Assembly: GCA_041599855.1 (NCBI GenBank)
Contig: JBFILE010000003.1
Coordinates: forward strand, 1 to 32,298
Direction: 5' to 3'
DNA length: 32,298 nt
From: Thermoplasmatota archaeon
GTDB taxonomy: Archaea; Thermoplasmatota; SW-10-69-26; JACQPN01; JAJPHT01
Positions within the stretch are counted from its first letter, which is position 1. The number at the start of each line of letters is the position of its first letter. The notes under the pieces are model-generated. The model was given only the letters and a program-made list of their open reading frames with translations. It had not been told where the DNA came from and did no database searches. The translations under genes and the position numbers were made by a program. Positions 792-30,838 of the stretch are shown here, in pieces.

Positions 792-1168
792 CAGTCCTGC
801 TCCGACGCCTCCACATACAGGTTGATGACGTTGGCGCCACCAGGAGTGTAAACCTTCACCGCGCCACCCTTCACCAGGAGCCAGTCGGGCACGATGGCGA
901 TGGGGCCGGCCTTGGCAGGCACCGAGAACACCACCTCATCGTTGGGGCTGGCGACCCCGACCCACTGCAAGTGCAGGTCGGCGGCTGTCCCGGTGTTGTT
1001 CCAGGCGTCCACCCGGAGGCGCTCGAAGCGAGCACCGCGCGAGTGGACGTGCAGCGTCTGGGCGGCCCCCAGCGTCGTCGCCGTGACCATCAGGAACTTC
1101 CCGTCCGTCATCCCCGCGCCGAGGATCACGCGGGTGGCGTACTGGCTGGCGTAGGACTGCTTGGGCAT
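791..1168 (-). CDS. Small beta-rich virion/tail-associated protein
   Basis: 125 aa, coupled to both neighbours by 1-nt overlaps, located between the ejection protein and the fibre. Function inferred from position. Confidence 0.6.
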   Translation of the reverse strand: MPKQSYASQYATRVILGAGMTDGKFLMVTATTLGAAQTLHVHSRGARFERLRVDAWNNTGTAADLHLQWVGVASPNDEVVFSVPAKAGPIAIVPDWLLVKGGAVKVYTPGGANVINLYVEASEQD

Positions 1169-4100
1169 CAGCGACCCTCCCTCTTGCGGGCGGCCTTGAG
1201 ACGACTACGCACGGGCCTGCGCGCAGCCAGGACCGCCGCATGCACGCGCGCGATGTCCTTCTCGGTCGGGTCGTCCCAGTTGAGCGGCATGGACAGGATG
1301 CGTTCCAGCGCCGCCTGGCCCGAGTCACGCACGAACTCCTCGAACTCCTCCTCGTCCCAGTACCTGGTCTTCCCGTCCTCGGTGTAGTGGTAGCTCGGCG
1401 GCTGCGTGTTGAAGGGCTTGAGAGCGCCGCCAACCGGCTGGCTGGCAACCTTCTCGTTCCAGTGCAAGAGCATGCGGTCGAGCTTGTTCGGGCCGCCCTC
1501 GGGCTCGTGAAGCGGCTCGGCGGCGAGCTGCACCACGTTGGCCATCCACGACCCGCGCGGGTTCCACGCCCACGGCTGGCCGCGCTCGATGCGCCGGCCC
1601 CAGAGGTCGCGCTTCGCGGGGGCCTGCATCGCGTGGCCTGGGGCGATGCCGCGCGCCACCTCCTTACGCAGCATCCCCGCCCATCCCGCGTCCTCGAAAC
1701 GCCGCGCCCGCTCCTCGCGAAGGTGCTCGTCCGTCATCCGCATTGGCTGCTTGATGATGTTGGGCACGTAGGCGGTCACGTAGTTCGCGAGCGTGTCCGC
1801 CGCCGCCGGGGCGCTGCGGTACTCGATCAGGCGCTGGAGATCCTGGAGCCCCTGGAGGTAGGTGGCGTCCTTCATGTGCTCATACACTGTACGGAACAGC
1901 TCCACCGACGCCTTGAGTTCGGCGTCCGGGTCCCCGGCCTTGGTGGCCTGGCGCCACTTGTTGGCGGCGTCCACGGTGATCGCGAGCGCGTTGGAGAGCG
2001 GGTCAATCTGGCGGTAGCTGACGCGCTTCCCGTTGATGCGGATGGTGTAGGGCGGGGCGGCTCCGTACTGAACTTGGCGCTCCCCGAAGTTCTCGGCCGG
2101 CGAGCCCGTGATGATCGGGTCGTCGTCGTCCCCGTCCTCGAGCCACCCGAGCACCACCAGCCCGAGCCCCGTGGCGATGATGGAGTCGGCGATGTCCGTG
2201 ACCATCTGCGCCTTGCCGCCCTTCCACTTGTGCCCGGCGCGCAGCAGGCCCGAGGCGTTGGACATCATCGACAGGTAGGCCAGCGGCGAGCGGCGCAGCG
2301 CGGCGAGCAGAAGCCGCATCGGGGTTTTGATGAACGTGAAGAACATGGTGCCCGGACCGGGGATCCCGAGCGGGTCTCCCTTGCGCCGCAGGGTTCCGAT
2401 CGCGTCCTCGAACTTCTGGAGTAGCGAGCCCGCCTCAAAGGGGTTTTGGAAGGTCAGGTAGAGCGCGGATGCTTCGGCGCCGGAGACGATCTCGGGGTCC
2501 CCGAGGGACACCAGCTCGTTCATGCGCGTGAACGTCTCCTCCGGTCCCTTACGGCCCTCGCCCTTGGCCTTACGGTAGGCTAGCGCGTACTGCTCCACGG
2601 TCTCGATGTAGCCCTTGAACGCCTCATCGAACGCGAGCAGGGAGGTGAGCGAGACCCCGCGCAGACCACGCCCGATCGGACCTCCGATGGCTGGCCCCGA
2701 CTGGCGCTCCATCCACTTGGACACCCGGTCCTCCATGTCCTTGTTCATCGCCGTGGAGGACTCGGTGCGGTAGGCCATGAGGAAGCGGCGGCCGGCTTCG
2801 GCGATCGCGGCGCCCTGGGCGCGTGCCATGACCCGCAGCTCCCCGAGTTGTGGCGCGTTGGGGGCGCGGACCACCGTGTTGATCGACGCCTCCACCACGC
2901 GCTGCACGTACAGCGACACGCCCACGTTCACCGCGTTGCCCCGGATGTTGCGCCACTGCGTGTACGGGCCGGAGAGGATGCTGGAGATGTACCACTCGGA
3001 GAGCTTGTCCCCGGTGCTGGCGCGGGTGGTCGAGACGATGCGGCGGATGCGGCTGGCAGTCACCGGGTCCGCGAAGTCCGAGAGTACGATCGCGGTGGGG
3101 TCGATGCCGTTGCGACGCAGCGCCTTGAGCAGCTTCGGGAGCTTCTTCGCCTCCGCAGCCAGGAGCGCCTGCATCTCGGCCCCGATCTCGTCGCGGCGCG
3201 CATCGCTGACGCCGGCCTCGCGGCGCTCGCGGTCGAGCCGCTCCAGCTCCTTCTGCGTGCGCACGGTGGGGCGGGCGATGATGTCCGCCATTGCGAGCTG
3301 GGCGGTGGTCTCGGTGTCGATGGCCTCGCGCCGGGCCTGGAGGGATCGGGCTGCCTCCGTGCCAGACTCCCGGTAGGCGGTGTAGACGTGCATCGACTCC
3401 ATCAGGTCCGCCTCGGAGCCGGTCTGGAGCGCACGTTGGCCCACGGTGTTGGCGATCAGCCGCATGGCGATCACCTCCACTTGGTTGAGCACCTGCACGC
3501 TCTGGTCGGGAGCCTCTCGCGTCTTGCGCATGAGGTACTCCTTCACGCCACCGAAGTTCGCGTGGAGCGCGGTCTCGGCCAGCGCGCGGGCCTCGGCGTT
3601 GGTGCGGACACCCGGCTTGTGCAGGATGTCGCGGATGATGTCGGCCATCCGAGTCAGCGTGCGCAACGCCGGGTCCACGGACGGCATGGCGAGGTCCGGG
3701 CGCGGGGTCACGCCGGAGGCTGCGGCGGACTCGATGGCGGGGAGCGCGCCGCGCGGGACGGGGACGCGCCCGCCTTTGGCGGCGAACTTGGGCGCGAAGG
3801 TGGAGAAGCCCGCCGCCTTCACGGCCTCGGCCATCGCGGGCGGGATGGGGAGGTGGTGGACGGTTTCTCTGTCGGGATACCGTGCCGGGACACCTCCCCC
3901 AACACTGCCCTTCTCCGTAGGCACCTCCGTCCTGCCGACCTTGACCCCGTACCGCTTGCCGAGCTTGTTCGCGGCGGCCGGCAGAATCTTGTCGTAGAAG
4001 CCCTCCATGCCGGCGCCGCCGATGGTGAGATTGTCGCCGGAGACGGAGCCGGAGTCCTCCGAGAGGATGCGCTTGGCGATCTCCTTGCCGACCAGCGACT

Positions 4101-7100
4101 CCAGCGTCTCGCCGACCGCTTCACCGCCGGGGCCTTGCGTGATGACCCCGCGCTCGTCCGCGCGGAACTCGGCGGCGCTCTGCCCACCCTTCACGGCGGA
4201 CACCACGATCTCGTCACGGATGCGCGTCCACCCGATCTCGTCCACCGCCTGCCGGTACGCCGTCTCGTACCGCTCCACCTGCTGCCGCCCAGTGGTCCAC
4301 GCCACGCCCTCGAACCCGTTATCCGCAGCCCACTTCAAGACCCGCTTCAGCGCCAGCGTCGGCCAGGATTGCTTGAACGGGGCGTCGGGGACGGCAGACG
4401 CCCGCGCAGTGTTAGCGGAGTCCGAAGCCGCCCGTGCCTGCGCGGCGGCAAGGGACTCGTGGTAAGACGCTCGGCCAGTGCCTGGCTCTGTGAGGCGATA
4501 CTGATGATCTAGCGCATCGTTCGCTGGCTGGTGGATGAGGTCCACAGACCAGTCGTTACCAGCCGCGTCACTGCCAACCCACCACTCCCCAGCAAGCCTC
4601 TCGTCCCACTCCAGCGACGGCGCGGCAGCCGATGGCGGACCCGCGTACCCCTTCTTCCGCCCCTCCTGATGGAGGTCGGATTGTATCTCCTCCACGAACA
4701 CCACCCGCTGCCCGTCCGCCGTCTCGCGCTCGTTGAAGCGCACGTGAGCCAGCACGTTCGGCGTCTCGCCGTAGTGGCCGCCGGTGAAGGCGCCGACGCT
4801 TTTGGTGTGGAACGCCAGGGCCGCCTGTGCCGCCGTGATGTTGCTCCAGTACGCAACGTCTCCACTGGGGCCTGTGTATAGTGAGCCGTCAGGCCGGCGC
4901 AGAACAAACTTGCCGTCCGCTCGCGTGGTAATCTCCCACCCGCCGCCTTCTGTATACGGCAGCGTCAGCAGCAGCTCCCGGTAGTTGGAGCCGCCGGGGA
5001 GCTGGTAGTCGGGGTACTTGGGCTCTGCCGCCTCTTGCGCTGCGAGATCCTTGCCCTGCGCGTAGTCCAAGAACAGCCTGGATGAGCCGTTGATGTGGCG
5101 CAACGCCTCCTCCGCGGTAGCGTAGTCCGCGACGGTTTCGCCGTGAGCCGGAGCCCCCGGCATTGGTTGGCGGTAGTCGAACACGTACCACCGCTCCGGG
5201 TCATACGTAGTCTTCTCCGGCGACCCCAGCACCTTCTCCTCCACCCCCACCCGGTGCGCCCGCACCCACTCCAGCGCCTCCGCCTTGGTGATCCGCTTGC
5301 GCTTGCGGTCGGCCACCAGCCCCTTCCAGTCCAGGTACTCCAGCTCTTCCTCGGTCACCCCCGGCTGCTTCCGCAACTGCGCGTCCAACTGCCCCGGCAG
5401 GAACGTCTCGCCCTTCAGCGACTCCACCCCGCGCTCGACCGCCGAGAACCAGCGGCGCTCCGGGCTGTCCGTGGGCGGGGCTGCGGCGAAACGGATGTCG
5501 CCATCGCGCTCAGGCGGCGTCCACACTTCAACGCCACGCAGAGAGTCGCCGGAACGCACCTCGGCGCCTGAGACCATGCGGGAGTAGTTGCGCGCGAAGT
5601 CGGACGCCATCATGCGCTGTCGCCGCCCACGCTTCCACACGACCAGTAGGCCAAAGTCTCCGTGTTCTTCCACAAGCGCAGCCAGGCGGCCCGAGCTAAC
5701 ATCCTCCGCGGTAATTGGCGTGCCCCGAACCGGCACCTTGCGGCCGAGGGGCAACGGCTTCTTGTGCTCGGCCTTGAGGTTCCGCAGCGTGCCTGTAATC
5801 TGATCGACGAAGTTTTGGGTTTCGAGCGCCCCCTCAAGGTCATCGCCCGGCCACCCCGGCTGACGCTCGATGACGCCAGGCTTGTACCTTGCATCAGCGC
5901 TTGAGCGCGGGAACGCAGTAGTAACCTTTGGAAGCATGGCGGTCGGCAGCCCGTAATCGCGCACCATCTCTGCCAGCGCGGACCGCGCCTGTTCCTCGGT
6001 GCGGTAAAAGTCCGTGACGTTCGCTCCACCTCCAACGTGGCTTGCCGACCGAAACTCCAATTCGCCCATGTATCGCCCATCACCACCCTGGACTGAGCGA
6101 TACGTTGTCACTCCGCCAGACGTTACTGGCTCTGACTTGAGCCCCGGACCAGGGACGAAGCGGATCCCAGCTGTAACACGATCAATCTGCTTGTCTTCGA
6201 CATGGAAGACTAAGCGCCCCGCACCGCGCTTACTCTCTATATGCTCGGTCCGCACCCGCCCCCAGTTGGTGTCCACTCCACGGCGCGGCATCCGCGCCTT
6301 CTCCGCCGCGAACCGCGCCTCCCCCGCCGCCCCCTCCCGCACCGGCAGCGTCTCCAGCGAGGAGATCGCCTCGTGCAGAACGCGGGCCGCCTTCAGCCCC
6401 TGGAGGTCCACGCCGATCCGCTCCAGTTGGCCCTCCTGCCACGTCTTCACGTCCACGCCGAGCCGCCGCAGGATCCGCTTCACCGCGTCCACCAACGACC
6501 GGAACACGCCCGGCTCGTTCAGCGCGATCCGCCGCAGCGTGCGCGCGCCCTCCGGGGTCCGCAGCGACTGGATCCACCCCGACAACTCCTGCGCCCGCTG
6601 CGCCAGCGCCTCCTCGCTCTGGAGGTCCGCCGTCAGCGCGTCGTACCGCTCCTCGCCGAACGCCTCCCGGTAGGCCGCTCGAGCCCGCTCCAGCCCGGCC
6701 GGGTCCACCCGGTCCACCTGCTGGTAGAGCCCGAGGATGTCCCGCTCCTTGCCCTCCGTCCGCCGGCTCCACTCATGGACGAGTTCGTGGTCCAGCACCG
6801 CCAGCGGGCTCGCCTGGTCGGCGCCGATGAACACCTCGCCGGGCTTCAGGGAGGCGCCGACGAAGCCCTTGCCCTTGGCGATCCGCACCTTGACCCCCAG
6901 CCGCTCCCCCAGCCCCACGGCGGCCTGCTGCTCCTCGGTCTCGGCCTCCACCTCCTCCAGCGGCTGCCCCCAGGCGCGTGAGACGCGCTCCAGCGTGTCT
7001 TCCGGCTCCGGGGCCGCCTCGGCCTCGGGCGCGGCAGGGGGGCTCTCAGGGGCCTCTGGCGTCTTGACGGGAGATGTCAGAGTCTTGACATCCGATGTCA

Positions 7101-8436
7101 GAGGCACCCCCTCATCGGGCACCCCCTCATCCAATGAGGCCCCCTCATTGAGGGGGGTGGGGGTGCCCGCCGCCCCGGAAGGTGGTTCGCCCTCGACCCC
7201 CCCCGCACCAGTGTCAGCCGGCTCGGGTTCCGTCGGTGGAGCGGCGGGCTTCTCTGCCGCGGTCTCCCCCTTCCCACCCTGGAGCTTCGCCAGGGCCGTC
7301 CGGGCGGCGTCCACTGCCGTCCCGGTGATCGCCATGCCCCCAGGCAGCACCGAGAACGCGATCGCCTCGCCAGCCGCCTGCTTCTTGCCGGGGACCACCT
7401 CGCCCAGGTCCGGAGCCCGCCCCTCCCTCACCGCAGCGTCCAGCTCGTGCAGGAGGTCCGACTCCCGCTCCTCCAGGAACTCCCCGATCGGGGCATGCAC
7501 CTGGCCGCGCCTCAGAACCCCCTTCAGCGCCTTCACCGCCGACCCGCCACTCACCCCCAGCTTCTCACCCATCCACGCCAGGAACGGCCCCGTCACCTTC
7601 TCCCGCATCAGCTTCGAGCCCGGCACCCCCAGCTCCGAAGCCGCCTCGTACACCTGGCTCCGCAGCGCCTGTGGCCACATCCCCTCCATGTCCTCGGCGC
7701 GCGCGTCCAGCTCGGCCCGCAACTCGCCGGCCTCGTCCTCGGAGAGCTTCAGCTTCTCGAAGAAGTCGGCCTCCGCCAGCCCCCGCGCCTGCTCGGTGGT
7801 ATGCCCCTCCCCGCCGAACGCCTGGGGCACCAATTCCCCAGCCGCGACGTGCCGGCCCACGATCCCGGCCCCGCGCCCAGCCATCGCAGCCGCCTTGAAG
7901 AGCCGGCTGGTCCGCTCGTAGTTCTTGAGCAGCGCCACCATGCCGCGGATCTTGGAGCCCCGCCGCGCCATCCCCAGCGCCCCGCCAACCCCTCCGGCAA
8001 CCAGGCTCTCGGCCAGGAACTCGCCCCCGAACTTGACCGCGCTCGGGAGGATCTCGGCCGTCCAGTCCGCGACGCTCAGTTCCCCGGAGACCGGGTTGGC
8101 CCCGAGAGCCTCCATGCGCTCCTTGACGAGGCGCAGTTGCTCCTGGCTGGCCGGCCGCCCGTCCCCGAATTCCTGTCGGTCGAGCGCCGCCATCGCGTCC
8201 GCCATCGACTCATCGAACGCCTTGTCACGCTCCGGCGCGTAGGGGATGTACCGTTCACGGGGTTTCTCGCGCAGACCCTCCCACACCCTACGCGGGAAGG
8301 ATCGGGCGTCCGCTCCGGTAAGCTCCATCACGGCGTCCACGTAATTGCTCACGCGCGCGGGCTCTCCAGTCAGGTCACCCGAGACCGACAGGAGACCGTC
8401 GATGTAGGCGCCAACCCCGTTGTCCTGGAGGCGCAC
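1168..8436 (-). CDS. Giant DNA-ejection/polyvalent virion protein (2422 aa) with zincin metallopeptidase and cargo domains
   Basis: GTG start with GGAGGTG SD; third gene of the ejection trio. Contains HELVH (6775-6789) with downstream EEALA, an EEIQSD-motif domain (4675-4692), and a helical C-terminus with SYRQIDPL/DATYLQGL/RDLWGRRI motifs like large internal virion (LPD38-type) proteins. Confidence 0.8.
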   Translation of the reverse strand: MRLQDNGVGAYIDGLLSVSGDLTGEPARVSNYVDAVMELTGADARSFPRRVWEGLREKPRERYIPYAPERDKAFDESMADAMAALDRQEFGDGRPASQEQLRLVKERMEALGANPVSGELSVADWTAEILPSAVKFGGEFLAESLVAGGVGGALGMARRGSKIRGMVALLKNYERTSRLFKAAAMAGRGAGIVGRHVAAGELVPQAFGGEGHTTEQARGLAEADFFEKLKLSEDEAGELRAELDARAEDMEGMWPQALRSQVYEAASELGVPGSKLMREKVTGPFLAWMGEKLGVSGGSAVKALKGVLRRGQVHAPIGEFLEERESDLLHELDAAVREGRAPDLGEVVPGKKQAAGEAIAFSVLPGGMAITGTAVDAARTALAKLQGGKGETAAEKPAAPPTEPEPADTGAGGVEGEPPSGAAGTPTPLNEGASLDEGVPDEGVPLTSDVKTLTSPVKTPEAPESPPAAPEAEAAPEPEDTLERVSRAWGQPLEEVEAETEEQQAAVGLGERLGVKVRIAKGKGFVGASLKPGEVFIGADQASPLAVLDHELVHEWSRRTEGKERDILGLYQQVDRVDPAGLERARAAYREAFGEERYDALTADLQSEEALAQRAQELSGWIQSLRTPEGARTLRRIALNEPGVFRSLVDAVKRILRRLGVDVKTWQEGQLERIGVDLQGLKAARVLHEAISSLETLPVREGAAGEARFAAEKARMPRRGVDTNWGRVRTEHIESKRGAGRLVFHVEDKQIDRVTAGIRFVPGPGLKSEPVTSGGVTTYRSVQGGDGRYMGELEFRSASHVGGGANVTDFYRTEEQARSALAEMVRDYGLPTAMLPKVTTAFPRSSADARYKPGVIERQPGWPGDDLEGALETQNFVDQITGTLRNLKAEHKKPLPLGRKVPVRGTPITAEDVSSGRLAALVEEHGDFGLLVVWKRGRRQRMMASDFARNYSRMVSGAEVRSGDSLRGVEVWTPPERDGDIRFAAAPPTDSPERRWFSAVERGVESLKGETFLPGQLDAQLRKQPGVTEEELEYLDWKGLVADRKRKRITKAEALEWVRAHRVGVEEKVLGSPEKTTYDPERWYVFDYRQPMPGAPAHGETVADYATAEEALRHINGSSRLFLDYAQGKDLAAQEAAEPKYPDYQLPGGSNYRELLLTLPYTEGGGWEITTRADGKFVLRRPDGSLYTGPSGDVAYWSNITAAQAALAFHTKSVGAFTGGHYGETPNVLAHVRFNERETADGQRVVFVEEIQSDLHQEGRKKGYAGPPSAAAPSLEWDERLAGEWWVGSDAAGNDWSVDLIHQPANDALDHQYRLTEPGTGRASYHESLAAAQARAASDSANTARASAVPDAPFKQSWPTLALKRVLKWAADNGFEGVAWTTGRQQVERYETAYRQAVDEIGWTRIRDEIVVSAVKGGQSAAEFRADERGVITQGPGGEAVGETLESLVGKEIAKRILSEDSGSVSGDNLTIGGAGMEGFYDKILPAAANKLGKRYGVKVGRTEVPTEKGSVGGGVPARYPDRETVHHLPIPPAMAEAVKAAGFSTFAPKFAAKGGRVPVPRGALPAIESAAASGVTPRPDLAMPSVDPALRTLTRMADIIRDILHKPGVRTNAEARALAETALHANFGGVKEYLMRKTREAPDQSVQVLNQVEVIAMRLIANTVGQRALQTGSEADLMESMHVYTAYRESGTEAARSLQARREAIDTETTAQLAMADIIARPTVRTQKELERLDRERREAGVSDARRDEIGAEMQALLAAEAKKLPKLLKALRRNGIDPTAIVLSDFADPVTASRIRRIVSTTRASTGDKLSEWYISSILSGPYTQWRNIRGNAVNVGVSLYVQRVVEASINTVVRAPNAPQLGELRVMARAQGAAIAEAGRRFLMAYRTESSTAMNKDMEDRVSKWMERQSGPAIGGPIGRGLRGVSLTSLLAFDEAFKGYIETVEQYALAYRKAKGEGRKGPEETFTRMNELVSLGDPEIVSGAEASALYLTFQNPFEAGSLLQKFEDAIGTLRRKGDPLGIPGPGTMFFTFIKTPMRLLLAALRRSPLAYLSMMSNASGLLRAGHKWKGGKAQMVTDIADSIIATGLGLVVLGWLEDGDDDDPIITGSPAENFGERQVQYGAAPPYTIRINGKRVSYRQIDPLSNALAITVDAANKWRQATKAGDPDAELKASVELFRTVYEHMKDATYLQGLQDLQRLIEYRSAPAAADTLANYVTAYVPNIIKQPMRMTDEHLREERARRFEDAGWAGMLRKEVARGIAPGHAMQAPAKRDLWGRRIERGQPWAWNPRGSWMANVVQLAAEPLHEPEGGPNKLDRMLLHWNEKVASQPVGGALKPFNTQPPSYHYTEDGKTRYWDEEEFEEFVRDSGQAALERILSMPLNWDDPTEKDIARVHAAVLAARRPVRSRLKAARKREGR
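7061..7150. repeat. Short tandem and inverted repeat cluster in the Pro/Glu-rich linker
   Basis: 21-bp imperfect tandem pair (7061-7081, 7082-7102); GGCACCCCCTCATC twice (7103-7116, 7118-7131); inverted repeat CAATGAGG-ccc-CCTCATTG (7132-7150). Confidence 0.8.
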
Positions 8437-9688: not shown

Positions 9689-10335
9689 CAGATCATCCCC
9701 GGGAATCCAGTGGAGCTACCGGCGCCGGGCGACTGCGGCTGCGACCCACCCCCGAACAGGCTGCCCCACGGAATCTGCCCCAAGAGACTCCCGAGTTCCG
9801 CACCCGCCACCCCGAAGCTGTTGAAGTCCGGGCTGTCCAGCCCCGCGTACGGGCTCCACCCGCGCAACGCGACACCCTGCGGCATCATCCCCGCCCGTAG
9901 GTTCGCCAACGCCCCACCACCCGCCAGCCGGGTAGTGGACCGCAGCCGCGCGATCTGCTCCGCCAGCGACCCGAGATCCCGGTTCGTCATGCTCGCGATC
10001 TGGTTCGAGGACTGCGCCGCCGCCGTCGTGTTGTACAGCCCCGTGTTCATCAGGTGCTGGGTGTTGGAGCCCTGCTGCGCCTTCCCCCGCCCCAGGATGT
10101 CCAGCTTCGCGGTTTGCCCCACGCCCTGGATGTCCTGCAAGGCCATGCGGTACGCCTCGGACATGTCGGCCAGGGCCTGACCGGACTGGTTCTTGTAGAA
10201 CCGCAGCGCACTCTTCCGGGCGCGCTCGTTCGCGGCTTTCACGCGAGATGCGTAGTCGCTCTTTTTCTTGGACCCGTAGAGACCGCCAGCGATGCCTCCG
10301 ATGGCGCCAATGGCGCTACCAATGCCGAGGGGCAT
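9688..10335 (-). CDS. Putative DNA pilot/ejection protein (P22 gp7-like position)
   Basis: 215 aa with Gly/Ala-rich hydrophobic N-terminus (GIGSAIGAIGGIAGGLYG) followed by a basic patch and Q/A-rich helices, as is typical of small ejection proteins. Confidence 0.65.
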   Translation of the reverse strand: MPLGIGSAIGAIGGIAGGLYGSKKKSDYASRVKAANERARKSALRFYKNQSGQALADMSEAYRMALQDIQGVGQTAKLDILGRGKAQQGSNTQHLMNTGLYNTTAAAQSSNQIASMTNRDLGSLAEQIARLRSTTRLAGGGALANLRAGMMPQGVALRGWSPYAGLDSPDFNSFGVAGAELGSLLGQIPWGSLFGGGSQPQSPGAGSSTGFPGMI

Positions 10336-10682
10336 TAATCCACCTCCATGCTTCCGGCCTCTCGCAAGGCCGCCATGAGTTCGTTGATCTTGTCTATCAC
10401 GTCTGCCGTTGGCGCCAGCGGGGGAAGGTCTGTGACGGACTGCGCCGCCCGCAACACCTTACCGCTCACCAACTCGATCTGTAGCCGCTGCTCCGGACCC
10501 ACCCGGAACTGGCGCGGGTCGAACGCCTGGTCCGCCTGCTCCGCGGTCTGCGGCTGCCTGCGATGACGAGGGTCCCCCAACCCGAGCGTCGCGCTGCGCC
10601 GGCTCTCTCCGGACTGCCCCGCACCTCGCAACCGACGCTGGCGCTCCGCAAGGGTCGGGGGACTGGATCGCTTCTCCGTCAT
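10335..10682 (-). CDS. Small virion protein with fibre-type trimerisation motif
   Basis: Start reassigned to ATG 10682 (ATGA overlap with the nozzle stop), 115 aa. C-terminal AAQSVTDL...VIDKINELMAALREAG resembles the head-fibre/needle trimer motif. Confidence 0.55.
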   Translation of the reverse strand: MTEKRSSPPTLAERQRRLRGAGQSGESRRSATLGLGDPRHRRQPQTAEQADQAFDPRQFRVGPEQRLQIELVSGKVLRAAQSVTDLPPLAPTADVIDKINELMAALREAGSMEVD

Positions 10683-13456
10683 CTCGGACCCTTCCTTCCA
10701 GCGGCCCACACGCGCACGCTCGCTTCCTCGTACGAGAAACTCTCCAGCGCGTTCGCGTTGCGCAGACGCAGGTAGCACGTGTCACCGGACCACCCCGCCA
10801 ACTCCGCAGGGTTGCGCCCCGCCGACAGCCGGCCGACCCGGAACGGAGCGGACAGCGGGTCGTCCGGCTCGGAACCCACGTACACCTCGTACGTGCAGCC
10901 GTGCTCATCGCTCGCGAGAACCGCCGTCAGCTCGTCGTATCCGGACTCCAACCCGCCGGCCGGCGGCACCGGGGCGATCGGCCCGATGGCGAAGTGGGCG
11001 TCGATCGCCGCCCCGTCGTCGTCCACCGCGTCCTCGTTCCACTCCCGCACGTACCCGTCGTTCCCGCCAACCAGGATGGTGCGGTCGTTCGCCGCGTCCC
11101 CATCGAACAGCACCACGGCGGTCGGCTGAGTGGTCGTCCCGCCGCCGTACTCGTCCTCCCACCACGAGCCCGTCTTGCGGTGCCAGAACCAGTGCTGCTT
11201 CACCGAGACCGTCCCGTACGGGATCTGGAACACGTGCAGCCCATCGTCCCGGTGGTTCCACACGAGCCGCATGTGATGCGTCGCCAGGTTCACGTCCTGG
11301 AACTTGCGCTGCAACCGATTGTCCGAGAGTGCCTCGGGCATCTGCGAACCAGGAGCCCAGCGCGCCACCCCGCCCCGGCTCTCGAAGAAGTACAGCACCC
11401 CGCGCGTGTCCTTGCACCACGGCTGACCGAACGACATGCCGAAGTCGTCCGTCACGAAGTCCATGCTCCCGCCCTGCATCGGGTCGCCAGTTAGCCGCCA
11501 GATGCTCTTGTCGCACCCGAACAGGAGAAGGTCATCCGCGTACGGGATCATCGTGTTCACGATGTCCGGCACCAGCCCCGCCTTCGCGTTGTTCCCGCTG
11601 ATGGCTTGCGTGGCCGCTGGAAACGCGGGAAAGTTGTTCCAGTCGTGCGGGTTGGCTACCGCGCTCATGTGCCAGTTCTGCGGGTCCTCCGGGTCGCGAG
11701 CTATCACGATCCGCCCCCGCCACGTCGTGATGAGCCTGCACCTCGGAGGGATCGTCCCTTGGGTCTTCGAGCGCCAGATCACCACGGCATCGTCGTCGAT
11801 GTCGTAGTAGCGGTAGTTGATCCCGTCCGTGAAGTACACGCGCTGAAAGAGACTCGCGACTCCGACGTATGGTGCGCCGGAGTCGAGAGCCCCGACGCCT
11901 GTACCCCCCCCGGGATCAGCAGGCGCCGTTCCGCCGCGCGTGAACGTGACGATGTTCCCGTTCGACACACCCACCATGCTCGTGGTGCGCAGGCCCGTGC
12001 CGGACTGAGTGGCGTTCACCCCGCGGATGTACGTGGCCACGATGTTCGCCGCCGTGACCTTCGCGTGTCCGAGGTACACGTACTCCACCACGTCCACCGC
12101 AGAGGCCCCGTACTCAGGCTTCGGAGACACGGGGATCCCGACGCACTTCGGCCCGAAGTCCGGCGTGCCCTGGTCGTACTGCCACACCTCCGTGCCGGCC
12201 GCCGCCGCGAACGCGATCACCTGGGGCTGGCCCGATGAGGCACCACCGTTCCAGGGCAGGTAGAGGTTGAAGTCCTCGTCCACCGCCATCTGGATCGGCG
12301 CCTCCTCGTTGATGTTGATGGCGGACACCGGGCTCGGGTCCACCGCCCACGTCCCCGCCGCCACCTTGGATACCGTGCGCCCCTCGTCCAACAGCCGCCG
12401 CACCTCGATCGCCGGCTCCGCAGTCACGGTCCCGCAGGAGTACACCCACTGCCCGTCGTTCGTCTTCTCCCCCAGAGCCAGGCCCATCCCGATCCCGCTC
12501 GTGGTCGCCTGTGTCAGCTCCCACACAGGAGCGGTCCCCACGTTCTGCGGGCTCCACTTCGAGATCCACTGTACGCTCGCGTAGTCGTCCCCGCACACGT
12601 ACAGGATCCCGTCATCCCGCACCGCCATCGCCCGCGGGAAGGCGTCCAGGCCGTTCGCACCGTTGATCGCCGTGATGGTCGCCACCGGGGCCGCGTCCAT
12701 CGTCACGTCCTGGTACACGAACACCGCGTGCCCGCCGTTGATCCCCTCGCGGTCCACATACGCGACGTACAGGTCACCGTTCTTCCAGACCAGCGCCTCC
12801 ACGTAACGCTGGCTCGTGCCGTTGTCCTCAAGTTCCCAGGCCAACTCATACTCCTCGTCGAACCCGATGCGGAAGGCCCACACTCGAGACAACTCCTGGA
12901 GCGCCGTCGTGGAGGAAGCGTGCCGTTCGTGCGGGTCGCCGGCCCCGATGAACACGTTGCCCAGGTCGTCCACCGCCATGGACCGCAGGTACGCCTCGTT
13001 CGATCCATCCCCCGCGGGGAGGTCGATGGGCGCCTGCATCGTCGCCAGGATCTCACCGTCCTGGTTCGTCTTGATGACGCCGAAAAGCGCGTCCAAGAGG
13101 TAGATGTTACCGAACACGTCCACCTCCACCCTCGTGACACGCGAGCTGGTCCCCGTGCCCTTGGTGGCGATCTGCGCCCACGCATCCGTGCCGATCCCGC
13201 TCGTGTCCTCCGCGAACGAGAGCAGCGTGTTCGGCGTCACGATCGGCGCCAGCGCCTGCACCTTGTTCGCGCCGCTCAACTGGTTCGTGTTCCAGCGCGT
13301 GAACCCCGACCGCTGCGACCCCATCACCCGCCCGTTGCGGCGGTTCACCGGGCGCATGTTCTTCACCGACCGACTCGTCCCCGGCTCCTGCAAGGAGAAT
13401 TGGTAGTTCTCGCTCAGGCCACCGAACGGGAACGGTAGGTCCAGCCGGTCAACCAT
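10679..13456 (-). CDS. Tail nozzle/tubular protein B (P22 gp10 or T7 gp12-like beta-propeller) with inserted propeller
   Basis: N-terminal FPFGGL...KNMRP...QRSG and later ITTWRGRIVIA, WHMSAVANPHDW, DDLLLFGCDKSIWRLTG motifs; lies directly after the adaptor. Confidence 0.75.
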   Translation of the reverse strand: MVDRLDLPFPFGGLSENYQFSLQEPGTSRSVKNMRPVNRRNGRVMGSQRSGFTRWNTNQLSGANKVQALAPIVTPNTLLSFAEDTSGIGTDAWAQIATKGTGTSSRVTRVEVDVFGNIYLLDALFGVIKTNQDGEILATMQAPIDLPAGDGSNEAYLRSMAVDDLGNVFIGAGDPHERHASSTTALQELSRVWAFRIGFDEEYELAWELEDNGTSQRYVEALVWKNGDLYVAYVDREGINGGHAVFVYQDVTMDAAPVATITAINGANGLDAFPRAMAVRDDGILYVCGDDYASVQWISKWSPQNVGTAPVWELTQATTSGIGMGLALGEKTNDGQWVYSCGTVTAEPAIEVRRLLDEGRTVSKVAAGTWAVDPSPVSAININEEAPIQMAVDEDFNLYLPWNGGASSGQPQVIAFAAAAGTEVWQYDQGTPDFGPKCVGIPVSPKPEYGASAVDVVEYVYLGHAKVTAANIVATYIRGVNATQSGTGLRTTSMVGVSNGNIVTFTRGGTAPADPGGGTGVGALDSGAPYVGVASLFQRVYFTDGINYRYYDIDDDAVVIWRSKTQGTIPPRCRLITTWRGRIVIARDPEDPQNWHMSAVANPHDWNNFPAFPAATQAISGNNAKAGLVPDIVNTMIPYADDLLLFGCDKSIWRLTGDPMQGGSMDFVTDDFGMSFGQPWCKDTRGVLYFFESRGGVARWAPGSQMPEALSDNRLQRKFQDVNLATHHMRLVWNHRDDGLHVFQIPYGTVSVKQHWFWHRKTGSWWEDEYGGGTTTQPTAVVLFDGDAANDRTILVGGNDGYVREWNEDAVDDDGAAIDAHFAIGPIAPVPPAGGLESGYDELTAVLASDEHGCTYEVYVGSEPDDPLSAPFRVGRLSAGRNPAELAGWSGDTCYLRLRNANALESFSYEEASVRVWAAGRKGPR

Positions 13457-24439: not shown

Positions 24440-24876
24440 AGTCCTCCCACCGGCTCCACCTTCACCACCGTCTGGACCACCGCGTTCCCGAAGCCGGGAG
24501 AGAGCGCGTCGTTCGCCCAGATGTGCTCGACTAGGTACACCCCCGGCCGAGCGAACGTCGTGGGACCGTTCAGGCTCAGGTCCCGCATGTTGTAGCCGAT
24601 GTCGTCGTCGTCCCAGTAGCCGTCCGTCTGGAGCGCATCGAAGAACACCGGAGCCGTGTCGTCGTTCGTGTTGTCGCGGTCGAAGCTCTCGTTCTTGATG
24701 GACTTCTTCGGGTCCGGCCCACTCCTCCAGTACACCAGCCGGCGGATCTCCTGCGTCGCCGTCCCGCTGATGTTCGCCCGCGTCAGATACGCTCCACTCG
24801 GATACCGGATCTGGGCCACGATCACGGGCTGTTGCCCCTCCAGGATCGTCACCTCGCTGCGGATCGTCATGCTCAT
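24436..24876 (-). CDS. Ig-like beta-sandwich virion accessory protein (putative)
   Basis: 146 aa, ATGA-coupled to the 961-aa gene; ends TFARPGVYLVEH...VVKV, like Ig/BppU-type adaptor domains. Confidence 0.5.
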   Translation of the reverse strand: MSMTIRSEVTILEGQQPVIVAQIRYPSGAYLTRANISGTATQEIRRLVYWRSGPDPKKSIKNESFDRDNTNDDTAPVFFDALQTDGYWDDDDIGYNMRDLSLNGPTTFARPGVYLVEHIWANDALSPGFGNAVVQTVVKVEPVGGL

Positions 24877-27758
24877 GGCGCCTTGGCCCCCGACACTACC
24901 AGAACGCCCGGCGTCGCTCGCGCGCGCCCCGTGATCGAAGGCCGCGCCGATGCCCGGCTACCAGGCAGCCCAGCCTCACCAGGCACACCACCAACCGTTG
25001 CCGTCAGCGCGAACGTGTACCGCCCCATGTCCGTAGTCAGCCGCGCCCCAGTCACCACCGTGGGCGTCGCCGCCAGCCCGAACTCGGCCAGCGCCAGGCT
25101 CGCCGTGGGGTTGACCGTACCACCGCCCGGGTCCGTGCTCGGCACCATGAACAGCTCGTACCGCAGCGTGAAGAACGGAGCCCGCGCCGGCACCGTCAGC
25201 TCGGCCGCCAGCGTCATCCCCCACGTACCAAGGGCCATAGACACGCCACCGGCGGGGAGGTTTTGGATCTCGGCCGTAACCCAGCCAGTCTCGTCCATCT
25301 GGCCCGTGCCGCCCATCATGTTCGTGACGAACGTCTCGTAGTCCTGATTGCCCGGACCCGCCCCAGAGTCGTACAGACCGCGCGTTTGTAGCGCCTTGTC
25401 CAGAGGCTCGAGGCTCCCCGTGATGAGGTAGGCCAGCACCGCCGTCGTTGGCGTAGTGTCCGCGTCGTCCAGCCAGCCAGGAAGAGGCCAGCGAATCCCC
25501 GTGGTTATCGGTGTGGATGTACCCGTCAGCCATGCCTGGATGAAGTTGCCCGGCACGTCCGAAGCCGCCGTCGGGTGCATCGTTTCATGGCGGAACCGAC
25601 ACAACTCCGAGATTCTGTTGACCACATCACTGTATAGCGACTGGTTGATTCCCTTCAGGGCGGACTCAGCGCACCCGTACAGCCCAAGGGCCTTGAAAAC
25701 CTGGTACTTGCTCTGGTTGACATCCACCGATGTCTCAGCGTTCGGCGTACAAGTAAGTGGCGGTGGCGGCGGCGGGCTCGGCGGGCTTTCCCAACACCCA
25801 TACCAGTCACGACCGTCAGGAAAAGCCCCTGTGTTAGTGCCGGTATCCGTGGCGCCAAAGATACCTTCATCCCAGGGATCTGCGAGACCCGAGATACCAC
25901 CCTGTGGAGTGGCGCGGATACCCATGCCTACCGACGATGCGTTCCGCAGAACAACCTTCACAGCCTCCTCGATGCGCACATACTCAACCAGGCGCCGCAC
26001 AGGGTCATGCTCGAACTGGTACATCCAAGACAGCAGATTGAGCCGCCACCCAACCGAGCGGTGGTACTGGAGCCAGCCCTGGCCGTCCCATCCGGCAGAC
26101 GTGAGCTGCTGGTTGGCGTCGGGGATATCTGTCAGGCCCAGCCACAGTGGAAACGAGAAGTTGATCCCAGCCACGCCGTAGGGGTTCACCGATAGGCGGT
26201 AGAAGTTCGCCATGAACTTCATCACCATCCGCGCACCTTGGTGGTTGATGCCGAACATCGGCAGCAGAAGCTCGTTCCACGCCCGCACGCTGTGGTTGCC
26301 GTCGTGGTATCCGCGTTCCCCTGTGTAGGTCTCGTGCGGAATCGTCCATCCGGGCGAGGGCTGGTTCCATGGCCTATCTGTCGGGATGAACTGCGACCGC
26401 TGCGTCCAGGGCACGACTGTGTTGCCGTCCACCTGGCTGTCCCACGGTGTTTTTCCCTGCACGGCGTGACCAGGCGCACCAGGCCATGAGTTGTTGTTGA
26501 TCGCGATCATGTCCTCCTGCGTGATCGGCTCGCCCGTGCGCACGTCGTACACCCAGACACGTGACCGGTCCAAAGTTGCCTGCGCGAGCTCAAGGTCGTA
26601 TAGCCAGCCCTCGCGGTGATGGTGCGCGCACCTACTCTGGTCAATCCCGTTGCCGCCAGTGCCGCCTCCACCCTGGTGGCGCGGGTGATACCAGCCAGCG
26701 GCAGGGTTGTCCATGTTGATGTGGTTATCCGTGCCGTTCGCGTAGTCGTTGCGCAAGCTGCCTCCGCTCGGCGACGTGTGAGAGCCCAGCGCCGACGCGA
26801 AACCAGCCCTGTGGGCGCTCAACGAAGCAGGAGCCACGATCTCTGGCACGCGGAACCGACCACACCCGAACCCGCGCGTCTTGTAGTAGCTGTTCTGACC
26901 AATGCACTGCCCGTGGCCGTACAACTCCAGCATGTCCACGGCCTTGCTCGCGTTGGCCGCAGGGCAGATTGCGTAGCGCCGGAACATGCCCTGTCCCAGC
27001 ACCATGATCTGGTGTTGAGTGCCGCCCAACGGCTTGACCAGTTCCGGCGGGCTCGCCCCCAGATTCTCGTGCTGCCGCGGGCTCGAGGACACCACCACCC
27101 AGCCCGGCGGGAGTCCGTTGAGCGTGATCGAGTCAAACAACATGCGCCCGTCGTTCGCGGCCTGAATCCCGTAGGGGTTGTCCAACCTGTCGGCGGAACC
27201 CGTCATGTGCATCAGGTCAATGGTGTAGATGCGCGCCGCCTGGTAACGGCCCAGCATTGCCTTCACCCCCCAGCACACCGTGGACCCATGCGGCGGCGCA
27301 CCCTCCCTGTATCGCGCCCAATACTCGACCTCGTGGTAGAACTCTCCCTGGAAGTGGCTGATTACGTTTGGACCGCCACCTGCATCGTTGAACAGGTACG
27401 CACGCATCGGCGTACCTATGTTGGCCACAGTCGTCTCCAGGTAGATGCCAGACAGGTCGTCGTTGAACACCGCGCCCTGAGCTCGCACTGCGCCGAACTC
27501 CTCCACCGAGTAGTACACGAACCCGTCGGGGTCCGCGGCTTGCGACCCATCCACGTCGCGTATCACCTCCAGAGCCGTCCACCGGCCCCGGGAGTCGAGC
27601 GTTACCCCGCGCACGTTCGCGTTATCTCCATCCACGAACAGCTTGGGGATGTTCGCGCCGTGTTCTTCTGGGTTGACCACAACCACCGCGCGCAACAGGA
27701 AGTCGTCCCCACCGAAGTTCGGCGGCTTCTCCACGCGGATGGTGTCGGAGATCGGCAT
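24873..27758 (-). CDS. 961-aa hypothetical protein, possibly a carbohydrate-active enzyme with C-terminal beta-repeat stalk
   Basis: Long ORF rich in W/H/Y/G with a helical second half and a C-terminal ~120 aa of Ala/Thr/Gly beta-like repeats. The CDS is clear; the function is speculative. Confidence 0.6.
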   Translation of the reverse strand: MPISDTIRVEKPPNFGGDDFLLRAVVVVNPEEHGANIPKLFVDGDNANVRGVTLDSRGRWTALEVIRDVDGSQAADPDGFVYYSVEEFGAVRAQGAVFNDDLSGIYLETTVANIGTPMRAYLFNDAGGGPNVISHFQGEFYHEVEYWARYREGAPPHGSTVCWGVKAMLGRYQAARIYTIDLMHMTGSADRLDNPYGIQAANDGRMLFDSITLNGLPPGWVVVSSSPRQHENLGASPPELVKPLGGTQHQIMVLGQGMFRRYAICPAANASKAVDMLELYGHGQCIGQNSYYKTRGFGCGRFRVPEIVAPASLSAHRAGFASALGSHTSPSGGSLRNDYANGTDNHINMDNPAAGWYHPRHQGGGGTGGNGIDQSRCAHHHREGWLYDLELAQATLDRSRVWVYDVRTGEPITQEDMIAINNNSWPGAPGHAVQGKTPWDSQVDGNTVVPWTQRSQFIPTDRPWNQPSPGWTIPHETYTGERGYHDGNHSVRAWNELLLPMFGINHQGARMVMKFMANFYRLSVNPYGVAGINFSFPLWLGLTDIPDANQQLTSAGWDGQGWLQYHRSVGWRLNLLSWMYQFEHDPVRRLVEYVRIEEAVKVVLRNASSVGMGIRATPQGGISGLADPWDEGIFGATDTGTNTGAFPDGRDWYGCWESPPSPPPPPPLTCTPNAETSVDVNQSKYQVFKALGLYGCAESALKGINQSLYSDVVNRISELCRFRHETMHPTAASDVPGNFIQAWLTGTSTPITTGIRWPLPGWLDDADTTPTTAVLAYLITGSLEPLDKALQTRGLYDSGAGPGNQDYETFVTNMMGGTGQMDETGWVTAEIQNLPAGGVSMALGTWGMTLAAELTVPARAPFFTLRYELFMVPSTDPGGGTVNPTASLALAEFGLAATPTVVTGARLTTDMGRYTFALTATVGGVPGEAGLPGSRASARPSITGRARATPGVLVVSGAKAP

Positions 27759-28835: not shown

Positions 28836-29239
28836 GGCGGATCCACCCCGTCCGTACACAGCACGTCCGTGCTCGTGAAGAACACGTAGCCCTGCTCCCC
28901 TTCGAGCTGCATCCCGGCCACCGACTGGATCCGCACGCGGTCCCCGGGCCGGATGTGCCAGGGCACCTCGACGCCGCTCTCGTAGTTCACGCCGGGCGGC
29001 CCCACCGCGATCACGAGCAGCCAATCCTCCTTGGGTAGGTAGGGCGGGCGCTTGGTCTGGGCTGCGAATTCCTCGTGTGCGCCCTCGGCCTCGCGCCAGG
29101 TGGCTCGTGGGATGTGGATCTTGCCGGGCATCTCCTGGGGTACGTCGGGGATGCCGATGGCGATGCCGGGCTGCGGCTTGAAGGGGCACGGGGGCACGTA
29201 GGTCAGTCGCTCGGGGGCGTCGACGGTGATCTCGGGCAT
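28832..29239 (-). CDS. GroES/Cpn10-like co-chaperonin
   Basis: PFKP...GKIHIP...VIAVGPPG...IRPGDRV...AG...GYVFFTSTDVL maps onto the GroES consensus. Confidence 0.75.
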   Translation of the reverse strand: MPEITVDAPERLTYVPPCPFKPQPGIAIGIPDVPQEMPGKIHIPRATWREAEGAHEEFAAQTKRPPYLPKEDWLLVIAVGPPGVNYESGVEVPWHIRPGDRVRIQSVAGMQLEGEQGYVFFTSTDVLCTDGVDPP

Positions 29240-29895
29240 GGCTCTACCGATATCCCAGGTACGGGGGCGGGGTCAACAGATACGCCGTAGAAGAAGCGGT
29301 CGGCGTCCTGGGTGGCCCACTTGCGGTGGTGTTCCACGCTCCACTCGGTGGTCTGGACCTTGTAGGAGGGTGGCGGGTCGGGGAAGGGCTCTGGGATGGT
29401 TGCGGGGTCGGCCCAGAGGATGCGGTTGTTCGGTTGGAGCGCGTAGCAGCCGTTGTCGAGCTCCAGGAGGTGGGCGCACTTCCAGCCTGAGTCCCCGGCG
29501 TTCTCGGCGTACGGGGAGCCGTGCCAGTCCACGGTGAAGACGCAGCGGCCGGGGTAGCGGATGCCGTCCTTGAGCACGGTCTCGACGCGCCGGCCGGATA
29601 GGTGGGCAAACTCGATGACGGAGGGCTTGTAGCTGAAGCAGTCCCAGAGCTCGAGGTGGTCCAGGGGTAGATCTGGTGCGTCCTGGCTGTGGACGAGGGC
29701 CGAGACGGGGAGGCGGGCGATGACGGCGCCCGAGGACTGCACGAGGACCCAGAAGCCGAGTGCGCGGCCCTGGAGGGAGGTGATGCCGAAGACGGAGACG
29801 CGCTCGAACTGGCCGCGGTGCTCTGGGTCCTGGTCGTACAGGTACTCCGCTCGGAGCCAGCAGTCGAAGCACGGGATGTCCGCATTGAGCGTCAC
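29203..29895 (-). CDS. Conserved phage hypothetical protein
   Basis: RAEYLYD, LPVSAL, LWDCFSY, FTVDW and KCAH...LDNG...QPNNRI motifs recalled from a widespread uncharacterised phage family. Confidence 0.7.
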   Translation of the reverse strand: MTLNADIPCFDCWLRAEYLYDQDPEHRGQFERVSVFGITSLQGRALGFWVLVQSSGAVIARLPVSALVHSQDAPDLPLDHLELWDCFSYKPSVIEFAHLSGRRVETVLKDGIRYPGRCVFTVDWHGSPYAENAGDSGWKCAHLLELDNGCYALQPNNRILWADPATIPEPFPDPPPSYKVQTTEWSVEHHRKWATQDADRFFYGVSVDPAPVPGISVEPCPRSPSTPPSD

Positions 29896-29899
29896 AGGC

Positions 29900-30838
29900 T
29901 CAGGGAACCGGGTCGGGGATCGTGATCGGGGCGGACGCCTGGGCTGCGGGGATCAGAGCGTCGGCGATGGCGTTGCCGAGGTCGAATTGGCCCTGGCCGG
30001 TGAAGTGCTCGTGGTCGATGACACCGCCCTCGGTCACCGCGATCTTGGGGAAGGTCTCCACGTAGTGGCTGAGGCTGTTCGGGATCACGCCGTCCTCGTT
30101 GTAGAGCGGGACGGCGGTGCGAGTGGTGTCGGTGGTGAAGAGGGTGGCGTTGGCGTCAGCGGCGGCCACGGCGGTCTGGGCGTCGCGCACCGTCTTGATG
30201 AAGGGGTGCTGTGTGAGCCGGTAATTCGACTCCCGCATGATGGCGATGTGCTTGGTGCCGATGCCGCCTACGTCCGCGCGGATCTGGGCCAGGAGGGTGG
30301 TTAGGTTCGCCTCGTAGGCGTCGGCGTCCGCTTGGGAGTCGGCGTCGGCTGCACCTTGCACCCAGGCGGCCCCGAAGAACTTGGGCGTGTCCCCGGCGGT
30401 GTAGATCGCGTCGATGGGCACCGTGAAGTAGTCCTGGAGCCACACGTCGTAGAGTTCGGACGTGCTCGGGCTCCAGTCGATCTTGGCGCCTGTGGCAGCG
30501 AGCGGGGCGCCTCCTCGCGCGCACTTCGAGATGTACACGTCCTCGTTCGGGAAGGCTTGGCGGATGCGGTAGGCGAGCTGGAGCTCGCAGCCGATGGCGT
30601 CCGCGTTGGTGCCCGAGGGGGCCGTGCCGCCGGATCCCTGGAAGCCGAAGCCGCGGTCCAGCGCAACCCAGGCCCCGCCGCCGTTGATGGTGTGCGGGGT
30701 GGCCGTGGTGATCTTGTCCCAGATGAAGGCGTTGGGGATGGGCAGCGCGTAGGGGGGCCGGACCACGTGAGTCTGCGTGGAGCCCTGGCCCCAGCAGTTG
30801 GACTGGCCCATCAAGAACACCACGTTTACGTTTGCCAT
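29900..30838 (-). CDS. SGNH hydrolase, sialate O-acetylesterase (SASA)-like
   Basis: Block I LMGQSN, block II ARGG, block III WVQGAAD and catalytic DxxH (DHEH). Confidence 0.85.
   Translation of the reverse strand: MANVNVVFLMGQSNCWGQGSTQTHVVRPPYALPIPNAFIWDKITTATPHTINGGGAWVALDRGFGFQGSGGTAPSGTNADAIGCELQLAYRIRQAFPNEDVYISKCARGGAPLAATGAKIDWSPSTSELYDVWLQDYFTVPIDAIYTAGDTPKFFGAAWVQGAADADSQADADAYEANLTTLLAQIRADVGGIGTKHIAIMRESNYRLTQHPFIKTVRDAQTAVAAADANATLFTTDTTRTAVPLYNEDGVIPNSLSHYVETFPKIAVTEGGVIDHEHFTGQGQFDLGNAIADALIPAAQASAPITIPDPVP

Follow-up and report, generated by a model that had tools for sequence, protein, structure and literature searches.

Does the largest protein encoded in the DNA stretch examined here cut itself into its parts with a peptidase that it carries? 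The window, i.e. the whole stretch analysed, is one entire contig of 32,298 bases (JBFILE010000003.1) from a binned genome of 809 contigs assigned to a Thermoplasmatota archaeon, and its largest open reading frame (ORF), P0001, encodes a polyvalent virion protein of 2422 residues, called the giant protein below. An earlier note, made from the sequence, had described it as a metallopeptidase with cargo cassettes bounded by [R/K]FAA motifs, at which its own peptidase might cut. Translation finds HELVH at residue 550 and [R/K]FAA at residues 708, 982 and 1550, exactly as that note had claimed. The features concerned are:

1168 to 8436, minus strand: giant ORF P0001, polyvalent virion protein, 2422 residues
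6775 to 6789, minus strand: HELVH, residues 550-554
6304 to 6315, minus strand: RFAA, first copy, residues 708-711
5482 to 5493, minus strand: RFAA, second copy, residues 982-985, placed in the peptidase active site by modelling
3790 to 3801, minus strand: TFAP, residues 1546-1549, four residues ahead of KFAA, aligned with the end of module M in relatives (G-x-P-x-F-[S/A])
3778 to 3789, minus strand: KFAA, third copy, residues 1550-1553, within 'GFSTFAPKFA', which is common to the relatives P0084 and P0097

The explanation that we favour is that the giant protein would be packaged in the virion as a polyprotein, in which a chassis carries two cassettes, D2 and M, between the peptidase and a C-terminal unit, and that the embedded peptidase would bind the motifs in the linkers between these parts as its substrates. 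The cut would fall at or beside the Phe residue, which in the second linker would make R982-F983 or F983-A984 the scissile bond; many zincins favour a bulky hydrophobic residue immediately after the cut. Whether it took place in the capsid or in the host after ejection, such cutting would yield about four products (roughly 708, 274, 568 and 872 residues) and would free the cargo from the structural chassis. Taken as a whole, this explanation has in our estimate an even chance of being right.

The giant protein consists of a conserved chassis (an N-terminal region, the predicted zincin-like peptidase and a C-terminal unit) and of the inserted cassettes D2 and M, that is, of five separable units, two of which, D2 and M, also exist as separate smaller proteins. 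We are highly confident of this architecture and of the placement of the motifs in linkers. Confidence values in the following list are those of the predicted local distance difference test (pLDDT):

7237 to 8436, minus strand: N-terminal region of the chassis, residues 1-400, common to relatives with the same peptidase
7000 to 7236, minus strand: low-complexity spacer rich in Pro, Glu and Ala, residues ~401-479, with no F-A motif in its translation
6352 to 6999, minus strand: zincin-like metallopeptidase domain, residues 480-695, pLDDT mostly above 90, defined by a family alignment
6256 to 6351, minus strand: linker 1, residues 696-727, with 10-residue blocks at pLDDT 43-54, where relatives diverge
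5521 to 6255, minus strand: cassette D2, residues 728-972, of no known family
5452 to 5520, minus strand: linker 2, residues 973-995, pLDDT below 50 at residues 977-984 in one model and at residues 960-996 in the other
3805 to 5451, minus strand: cassette M, residues 996-1544, starting with WFS, with a GNAT-like fold core and large insertions
3706 to 3804, minus strand: linker 3, residues 1545-1577, pLDDT below 50 at residues 1545-1587
1171 to 3705, minus strand: C-terminal unit of the chassis, residues 1578-2422, starting with RPDL, of the internal-virion-protein type

Two AlphaFold2 models cover the inner part of the protein, one for residues 480-1000 (27-row alignment, mean pLDDT 79.7) and one for residues 960-1600 (21 rows, mean pLDDT 66.9). 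The first shows the peptidase mostly above 90, the drop to block means of 43-54 over residues ~700-729, the segment below 50 at residues 977-984, and a folded D2 of mixed confidence (blocks from 49 to 96), and the second contributes the values below 50 at residues 960-996 and 1545-1587. The motifs lie in the linkers, outside the folded domains, and the position at domain boundaries that the earlier note had assigned to them is borne out by both models as well as by homology.

A search of 5.8 billion proteins yielded 80 large relatives of the giant protein (1493-4227 residues, 23-40% local identity), whose BLAST coverage is near nil before residue 976, amounts to 64-73 proteins over residues ~1150-1500 and falls after residue 1550; by homology, module M extends over residues ~985-1550. 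Many of these relatives carry ART-PolyVal, LPD38, LPD22, InPase, ddrB-ParB, methylase or helicase domains, and the Pfam families among those of the 80 that share module M or the C-terminal unit include PF18760, PF18857, PF18834, PF18823 and PF18763, besides others. The C-terminal 860 residues are common to at most 12 relatives, with alignments that start at residues 1561-1599 and run end to end with the relatives' own C-termini (P0004, P0008, P0010, P0020, P0021, P0085, P0091, P0099 and P0107). The start of this unit, R-P-D-L-[A/N]-x-P, is conserved in the giant protein, P0004, P0021, P0085, P0091 and P0099, and P0020 has a variant of it.

An exhaustive HMMER search with residues 480-990 resolved two independent units, the peptidase (residues ~480-700) and D2 (residues ~750-976). 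The peptidase domain occurs in giant proteins, with members of its family in 18 of 98 large ones, and the alignment of 15 relatives is conserved to residue ~692, beyond which the linkers cannot be aligned. D2 has 16 relatives, three of them giant and 13 small, and 12 of the 13 small proteins stop 0-17 residues past the equivalent of residue ~976. Module M is matched by 415 proteins shorter than 1332 residues; many of these stand-alone M proteins have 550-800 residues, are encoded on contigs of 15-136 kb and bear an N-terminal extension of 90-300 residues, and the module has strongly conserved motifs, among them EEIQSDWHQ, LPGGENYRE, AWTTG and GFYDK. The N-terminal region is matched by BLAST over residues ~96-480 in P0083, P0085, P0086, P0089, P0094 and P0107.

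Among the relatives these units occur in different combinations. In P0107, P0099 and P0091, D2 and M are both absent and the peptidase is joined to the C-terminal unit. P0085 retains N-terminal region, peptidase and C-terminal unit (38% identity) and has different material in between, and P0084 and P0097 combine the peptidase with M. The alignments of these mosaic relatives end at residues 703-765 and 1578-1599 of the giant protein, and the module M alignment of P0084 covers residues 979-1554. Alignment ends within linkers 1 and 3, together with an alignment that spans from linker 2 to linker 3, support the claim that the motifs mark swappable cassettes: gain and loss among relatives break in the linkers that carry them.

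Pfam has no family for the peptidase, D2 or module M, and searching it with the whole giant protein at E ≤ 1 gave nothing but a chance-level coiled-coil and no polyvalent domain. The C-terminal unit matches phrog_6651, 'internal virion protein' (E 4.6e-8, 32.4 bits, residues 2116-2225 against positions 1049-1154 of a profile of 1375), and the N-terminal region has, as a lead from Atlas, viral hypothetical clusters, one of them with LPD22 on 29% of its members. Foldseek searches of the PDB with both models returned nothing at E ≤ 0.001. For module M, all 50 rows listed by VIA-align are domains of the GNAT fold (acetyltransferases, acyl-homoserine lactone synthases and the C-terminal domain of ICL2), with 110-154 residues aligned, root mean square deviations of 2.7-6.5 and Z scores of 7.2-9.7, where values below 8 can reflect a common arrangement; no Pfam acetyltransferase matched. 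Because Foldseek gave nothing, the predicted GNAT-like nature of module M is a lead at the level of the fold. D2 had no hit in Atlas, and in Pfam there was none for seven of its small relatives and P0087 (8 of the 16); VIA-align of the model of peptidase and D2 found nothing above Z 5.3, a missing match that is no evidence for a new fold. With D2 of no known family and M GNAT-like by fold, the earlier description of the cargo as 'anti-host' goes further than these matches do. The phage GenBank collection gave the giant protein only four matches, which were weak and partial and all fell on module M.

The placement of the motifs can be judged against other recurrent patterns of the same protein, in which alanine makes up 12.8% of the residues. 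Patterns that consist of two alternative residues and an exact tripeptide and occur at least three times against an expectation of at most 0.13 number 18, [RK]FAA included. The three linkers, delimited for this purpose by low pLDDT and homology breakpoints (residues 696-727, 973-995 and 1545-1587), comprise 98 of the 2422 residues, or 4.05%. All three copies of [RK]FAA fall inside them, one per linker, unlike the other 17 patterns, 16 of which have no copy there and one of which has one copy of three. The probability of this by chance is 0.0405^3, about 7e-5, or about 1e-3 after multiplication by the 18 patterns, and the placement of the motif in linkers is beyond chance. The DNA around the three copies has nothing in common beyond the codons themselves, therefore recombination sites based on nucleotide identity are unlikely.

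Relatives show that [R/K]FAA is a local, alanine-rich form of a looser junction motif, documented by alignments, profiles and counts by eye, and comparison of their sequences indicates that the motif is better defined as a basic or hydrophobic residue followed by F or Y and then A or S. The earlier note had tied [R/K]FAA to the breakpoints of homologs; in the strict form this did not hold up, and it is the looser x-[F/Y]-[A/S] that is found there. That this junction motif is real and common to the relatives we consider very probable. In the alignment upstream of module M, the column of R-F-A contains [F/Y][S/A/Q] in 14 of 24 rows, whichever module precedes (a count by eye), and F-R or Y-G in two more. 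The module itself opens with an aromatic-aromatic-Ser anchor (WFS in the giant protein) and closes with '...ITP.M.......G.P.F[S/A]'. At the junction before M, P0097 has 'DIRFAGEASASPPWFSAMSRAVEG' and the giant protein 'DIRFAAAPPTDSPERRWFSAVERGVES', and the junctions of the nearest peptidase relatives, P0095, P0093 and P0089, read '[AK][RK]F[AS].AP..D[ST]PEF..WF'. Before the C-terminal unit, x-F-[A/S] occurs within 60 residues upstream in seven of nine rows, two of which, P0008 and P0010, are near-duplicates. The single linker of P0107 contains 'AKFAPP', and its alignment stops at residue 709 beside that KFAPP; P0099 and P0091 have no Phe at all in the linker that follows the peptidase. Inside the C-terminal unit, P0091 (residues 551-562) and P0099 (residues 956-967) contain a doubled [R/K]FAP, eight residues apart, without a counterpart in that of the giant protein.

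Statistics over whole proteins were less specific. Unbiased k-mer enrichment was dominated by core motifs of module M, with F-S (1.35-fold) and FYS the only other notable ones, and the residue profile around BLAST alignment ends was uninformative, swamped by breakpoints within module M. Dipeptides before the anchor of module M were modestly enriched for LF, YS and LY (z 2.9-4.7). A junction profile seeded from a gappy alignment took in whole domains and was set aside, leaving a reading of the sequences in place of counts. The 17 other large proteins that carry this peptidase family contain 39 copies of [RK]-F-A where 18.2 would be expected (2.1-fold, not corrected for shared ancestry); in the 80 large proteins without the family, A is outside the top five enriched third residues and S is enriched (82 against 55.8).

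A related motif closes modules of the ART-PolyVal type. This tail of 31 residues, 'QIKSA..GN.G.FDP.NPDIRFS', ends in DIRF[S/A] and has 40 copies, spread over 28 of 81 proteins; the Pfam model of ART-PolyVal ends inside it. It recurs within single proteins (P0059, P0029, P0007 and others, up to four times in P0059), and the next module often opens 8-12 residues further on with 'TPEF..WF'.

The step from a junction motif to a cleavage site rests on the peptidase and on a predicted complex. HELVH lies within a predicted helix (residues 544-560), and H-E-x-x-H is present in all 15 rows of the family alignment; a downstream acidic pair, E608/E609, is aligned in most rows, is a candidate for the third zinc ligand and touches the modelled peptide. 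The complex was predicted for the peptidase (residues 480-700, with zinc and a 19-row alignment) and a 36-residue peptide of linker 2 (residues 965-1000). It scored 0.85 (0.85, 0.81 and 0.87 in the individual runs), compared with 0.00 for the best of three controls; 58 of 80 solved complexes and 2 of 110 mismatched pairs attained that mark. Contact agreement between runs was at least 68% and the pLDDT of the partner at least 53. The contacts of lowest predicted error join R982, F983 and A984 to the strand G527-A528-S529 and to H550, E551, H554, E608/E609 and A612. The model supports binding of linker 2, with RFAA predicted to lie on the catalytic residues in a substrate-like pose along the edge strand. 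On this modelling, we give cleavage at the junction motifs by the protein's own peptidase about equal chances of being right and wrong.

Several observations in this and the following paragraph weigh against such cleavage. Composition predicts 0.13 copies of [RK]FAA, and three or more were present in 0.02% of 5000 shuffles, a figure for a motif picked after reading the sequence; comparably rare recurrent patterns were present in all of 2000 shuffles, on average nine per shuffle. Because equally rare patterns arise in every shuffle, the count of three copies carries no weight and is no evidence. The strict motif is not enriched in the 80 relatives (19 observed, 14.3 expected), the enrichment of [RK]-F-A together with the peptidase is only twofold and uncorrected for ancestry, and the D2-bearing giants P0087, P0088 and P0092 have no such motif after D2. 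No Pfam peptidase family was found in the giant protein at E ≤ 1, and the matches of the peptidase to zincin folds are weak (Z 4.5-5.3): VIA-align gave Z 5.1 for anthrax lethal factor (134 residues aligned, root mean square deviation 4.5) and for PprI, 4.7 for lugdulysin and 4.5-4.6 for PPEP-2 and PPEP-3, all within the range deemed common. The complex prediction is a single one that covers linker 2 of the three linkers, with an alignment made by us and a zinc ion riding along, unlike the calibration set. Since solved structures include many zincin-peptide complexes, resemblance to these may explain part of the score.

The evidence against cleavage by its own peptidase makes inherited module ends the main rival, one that we consider possible and rather doubtful. 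According to it, the motifs would be uncut, the cassettes having brought their own terminal residues along by recombination into the chassis; G-x-P-x-F-[A/S] would be the end of M, 'DIRF[A/S]' a remnant of a former upstream module of the ART-PolyVal type, and the Phe-small pair would be structural locally or have no role, with the polyprotein acting uncut like the virion RNA polymerase of phage N4. Among 30 M proteins from longer contigs (550-809 residues), the alignment reaches the module end in 20, and 13 of these end with G-x-P-x-F-[A/S/T], beyond which only 8-34 residues and no cargo remain (a count by eye); since stand-alone M proteins keep the end motif free of cargo, the copy at the end of module M is explicable as an inherited module end. 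The ART-PolyVal tail is likewise the C-terminal end of its module, and 26 of 32 tail carriers lack this peptidase family, 6 of the 32 lacking any HExxH. Peptidases of this kind are borne by the N4 virion RNA polymerase, ArdC and TraC1, which travel unprocessed according to passages in Iyer et al. (PMC5512222), and gp47 of phage phi24B (2811 residues) was detected in virions, with no processing mentioned in the part of the report that describes it (bioRxiv 10.64898/2026.04.10.717836). A kinship of the second site of the giant protein with the ART tail was considered and dropped: a tail profile built without the giant protein misses it even at E ≤ 1000, so that the resemblance of 'DIRFA' to the tail rests on five residues. 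Inheritance of module ends has more difficulty with the motif preceding M whatever module is upstream, and with its presence at three unrelated junctions of one protein, in segments of low pLDDT that are not packed on a domain. The first copy, which comes after the peptidase, is part of neither M nor an ART module, and in the complex model, whose controls scored 0.00, the motif rests on the catalytic residues.

Another protease might cut the linkers, either in the maturation of the phage prohead or in the host after ejection, with the zincin having its substrate elsewhere, in the cell wall or among host proteins. Exposed, disordered linkers are generic targets of proteases; a role in the cell wall is suggested for the metallopeptidase of gp47 by the phi24B authors (bioRxiv 10.64898/2026.04.10.717836), and passages in Iyer et al. 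(PMC5512222) mention assemblin-like peptidases for virion processing. However, no prohead protease was recognised among the ORFs of the window scanned with PHROGs and Pfam, a weak argument given how divergent the phage is, and the complex model points to the protein's own peptidase; we regard this alternative as quite unlikely. Coincidence, i.e. three copies of [RK]FAA by chance in an alanine-rich protein, would agree with the shuffles and with DNA alike in nothing but codons, yet is very improbable in view of the confinement of all three copies to 4% of the sequence, which none of the 17 comparable patterns shows, of equivalent motifs at equivalent junctions of relatives and of the complex model.

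Cleavage by the embedded peptidase, our preferred explanation, can be extended to the tentative idea, which we would not ourselves bet on, that x-[F/Y]-[A/S] motifs in linkers are a code of protease sites for embedded zincins, the flavour of the site ([R/K]-F-A in the giant protein) co-varying with the family of the peptidase. If so, a cassette between two sites would be released automatically after delivery, and giant proteins of this type would be self-processing polyproteins with products predictable from sequence. Polyvalent proteins are regarded as one of the chief vehicles for the enzymes that phages and conjugative elements deliver to a new host. The giant protein offers a compact test case, having an intact-looking peptidase, three linkers with the same motif, relatives without cargo and a motif modelled on the catalytic residues. 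If cleavage does take place at the motif, sequence would reveal which products arise from many giant phage proteins that are still uncharacterised, and cargo such as the widespread GNAT-like module M could be studied as discrete proteins.

The giant protein is encoded within a block of virion genes, in a window with a G+C content of ~65-71%. Upstream of it and on the same strand are a large terminase (Pfam Terminase_3, E 5.7e-14; phrog_2, E 2.9e-23), an ORF of 600 residues with a weak match to the SU10 portal, below the Pfam cut-off, and an ORF of 394 residues that matches a major-head-protein PHROG (E 3.6e-5); a downstream ORF matches a minor-tail PHROG. The earlier proposal of a polyvalent protein in a virion block is in agreement with these neighbours, with the Pfam domains of the relatives and with the PHROG match to an internal virion protein. 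Most other ORFs of the window have no match in Pfam or PHROGs, therefore the phage is very divergent; ORFs without a family in either database include:

24873 to 27758, minus strand: ORF of 961 residues
10679 to 13456, minus strand: ORF of 925 residues
8438 to 9688, minus strand: ORF of 416 residues

The second of these and the ORF at 10335 to 10778, as listed, share 100 bases, so that one of the two start codons is probably wrong. No other family match in the window comes near in strength to that of a 230-residue ORF (29203 to 29895, minus strand) with phrog_3704, 'ferredoxin' (moron/auxiliary), over its full length (E 2.9e-55), and beside it a 312-residue ORF (29900 to 30838, minus strand) matches the SASA carbohydrate esterase family of Pfam (E 2.6e-15).

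Among known systems, we take the internal virion (ejection) proteins of the T7 gp16 type to be a likeness, the gene here standing after capsid and tail genes. The PHROG match in the C-terminal unit agrees with this, but it covers only 110 residues (E 4.6e-8), and neither a transglycosylase nor any further trait of gp16 turned up. Polyproteins of eukaryotic RNA viruses, an analogy drawn in passages of Iyer et al. (PMC5512222), also combine disparate modules, short recognition sites and an embedded protease, but their protease class and domains are unrelated, and cleavage in the giant protein is a prediction. Gp47 of phi24B, a virion protein of 2811 residues with LPD5, LPD1, LPD38 and a MuF-C metallopeptidase, is likewise a large polyvalent protein, found by virion proteomics of a podovirus and proposed as an ejection protein (bioRxiv 10.64898/2026.04.10.717836). 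It differs in its domain set, and the passages on it assign its peptidase a role in the cell wall rather than in self-processing. According to the same report, phi24B has a capsid-decorating esterase of the NanS/SASA type, to which the SASA-type ORF of the window may be a parallel.

The closest comparison is with the polyvalent proteins described by Iyer, Burroughs, Anand, de Souza and Aravind in 2017 (PMC5512222), which share with the giant protein a giant multidomain polypeptide encoded beside virion genes and a zincin-like peptidase as a hub domain; the giant protein differs in that it has no Pfam polyvalent domain at E ≤ 1. DdrB of phage P1 and the N4 virion RNA polymerase are, as described there, head-packaged and have an embedded zincin-type peptidase. 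DdrB is reported to undergo processing to about 76 kDa before it is packaged, with no cleavage site given in the passages on it, and the N4 enzyme, unlike the polyprotein proposed here, is packaged uncut, therefore the presence of a peptidase does not predict cleavage. The same authors proposed that zincin peptidases process polyvalent proteins, and the passages searched in their main text name no cleavage site or junction motif; a full-text literature search found neither a defined junction or cleavage motif for polyvalent proteins in print nor a direct test of the 2017 proposal. The giant protein is thus a new, very divergent polyvalent protein, to which a self-processing proposal already known since 2017 can be applied, and what is new here is a candidate processing site, which offers a concrete and cheap test of that proposal.

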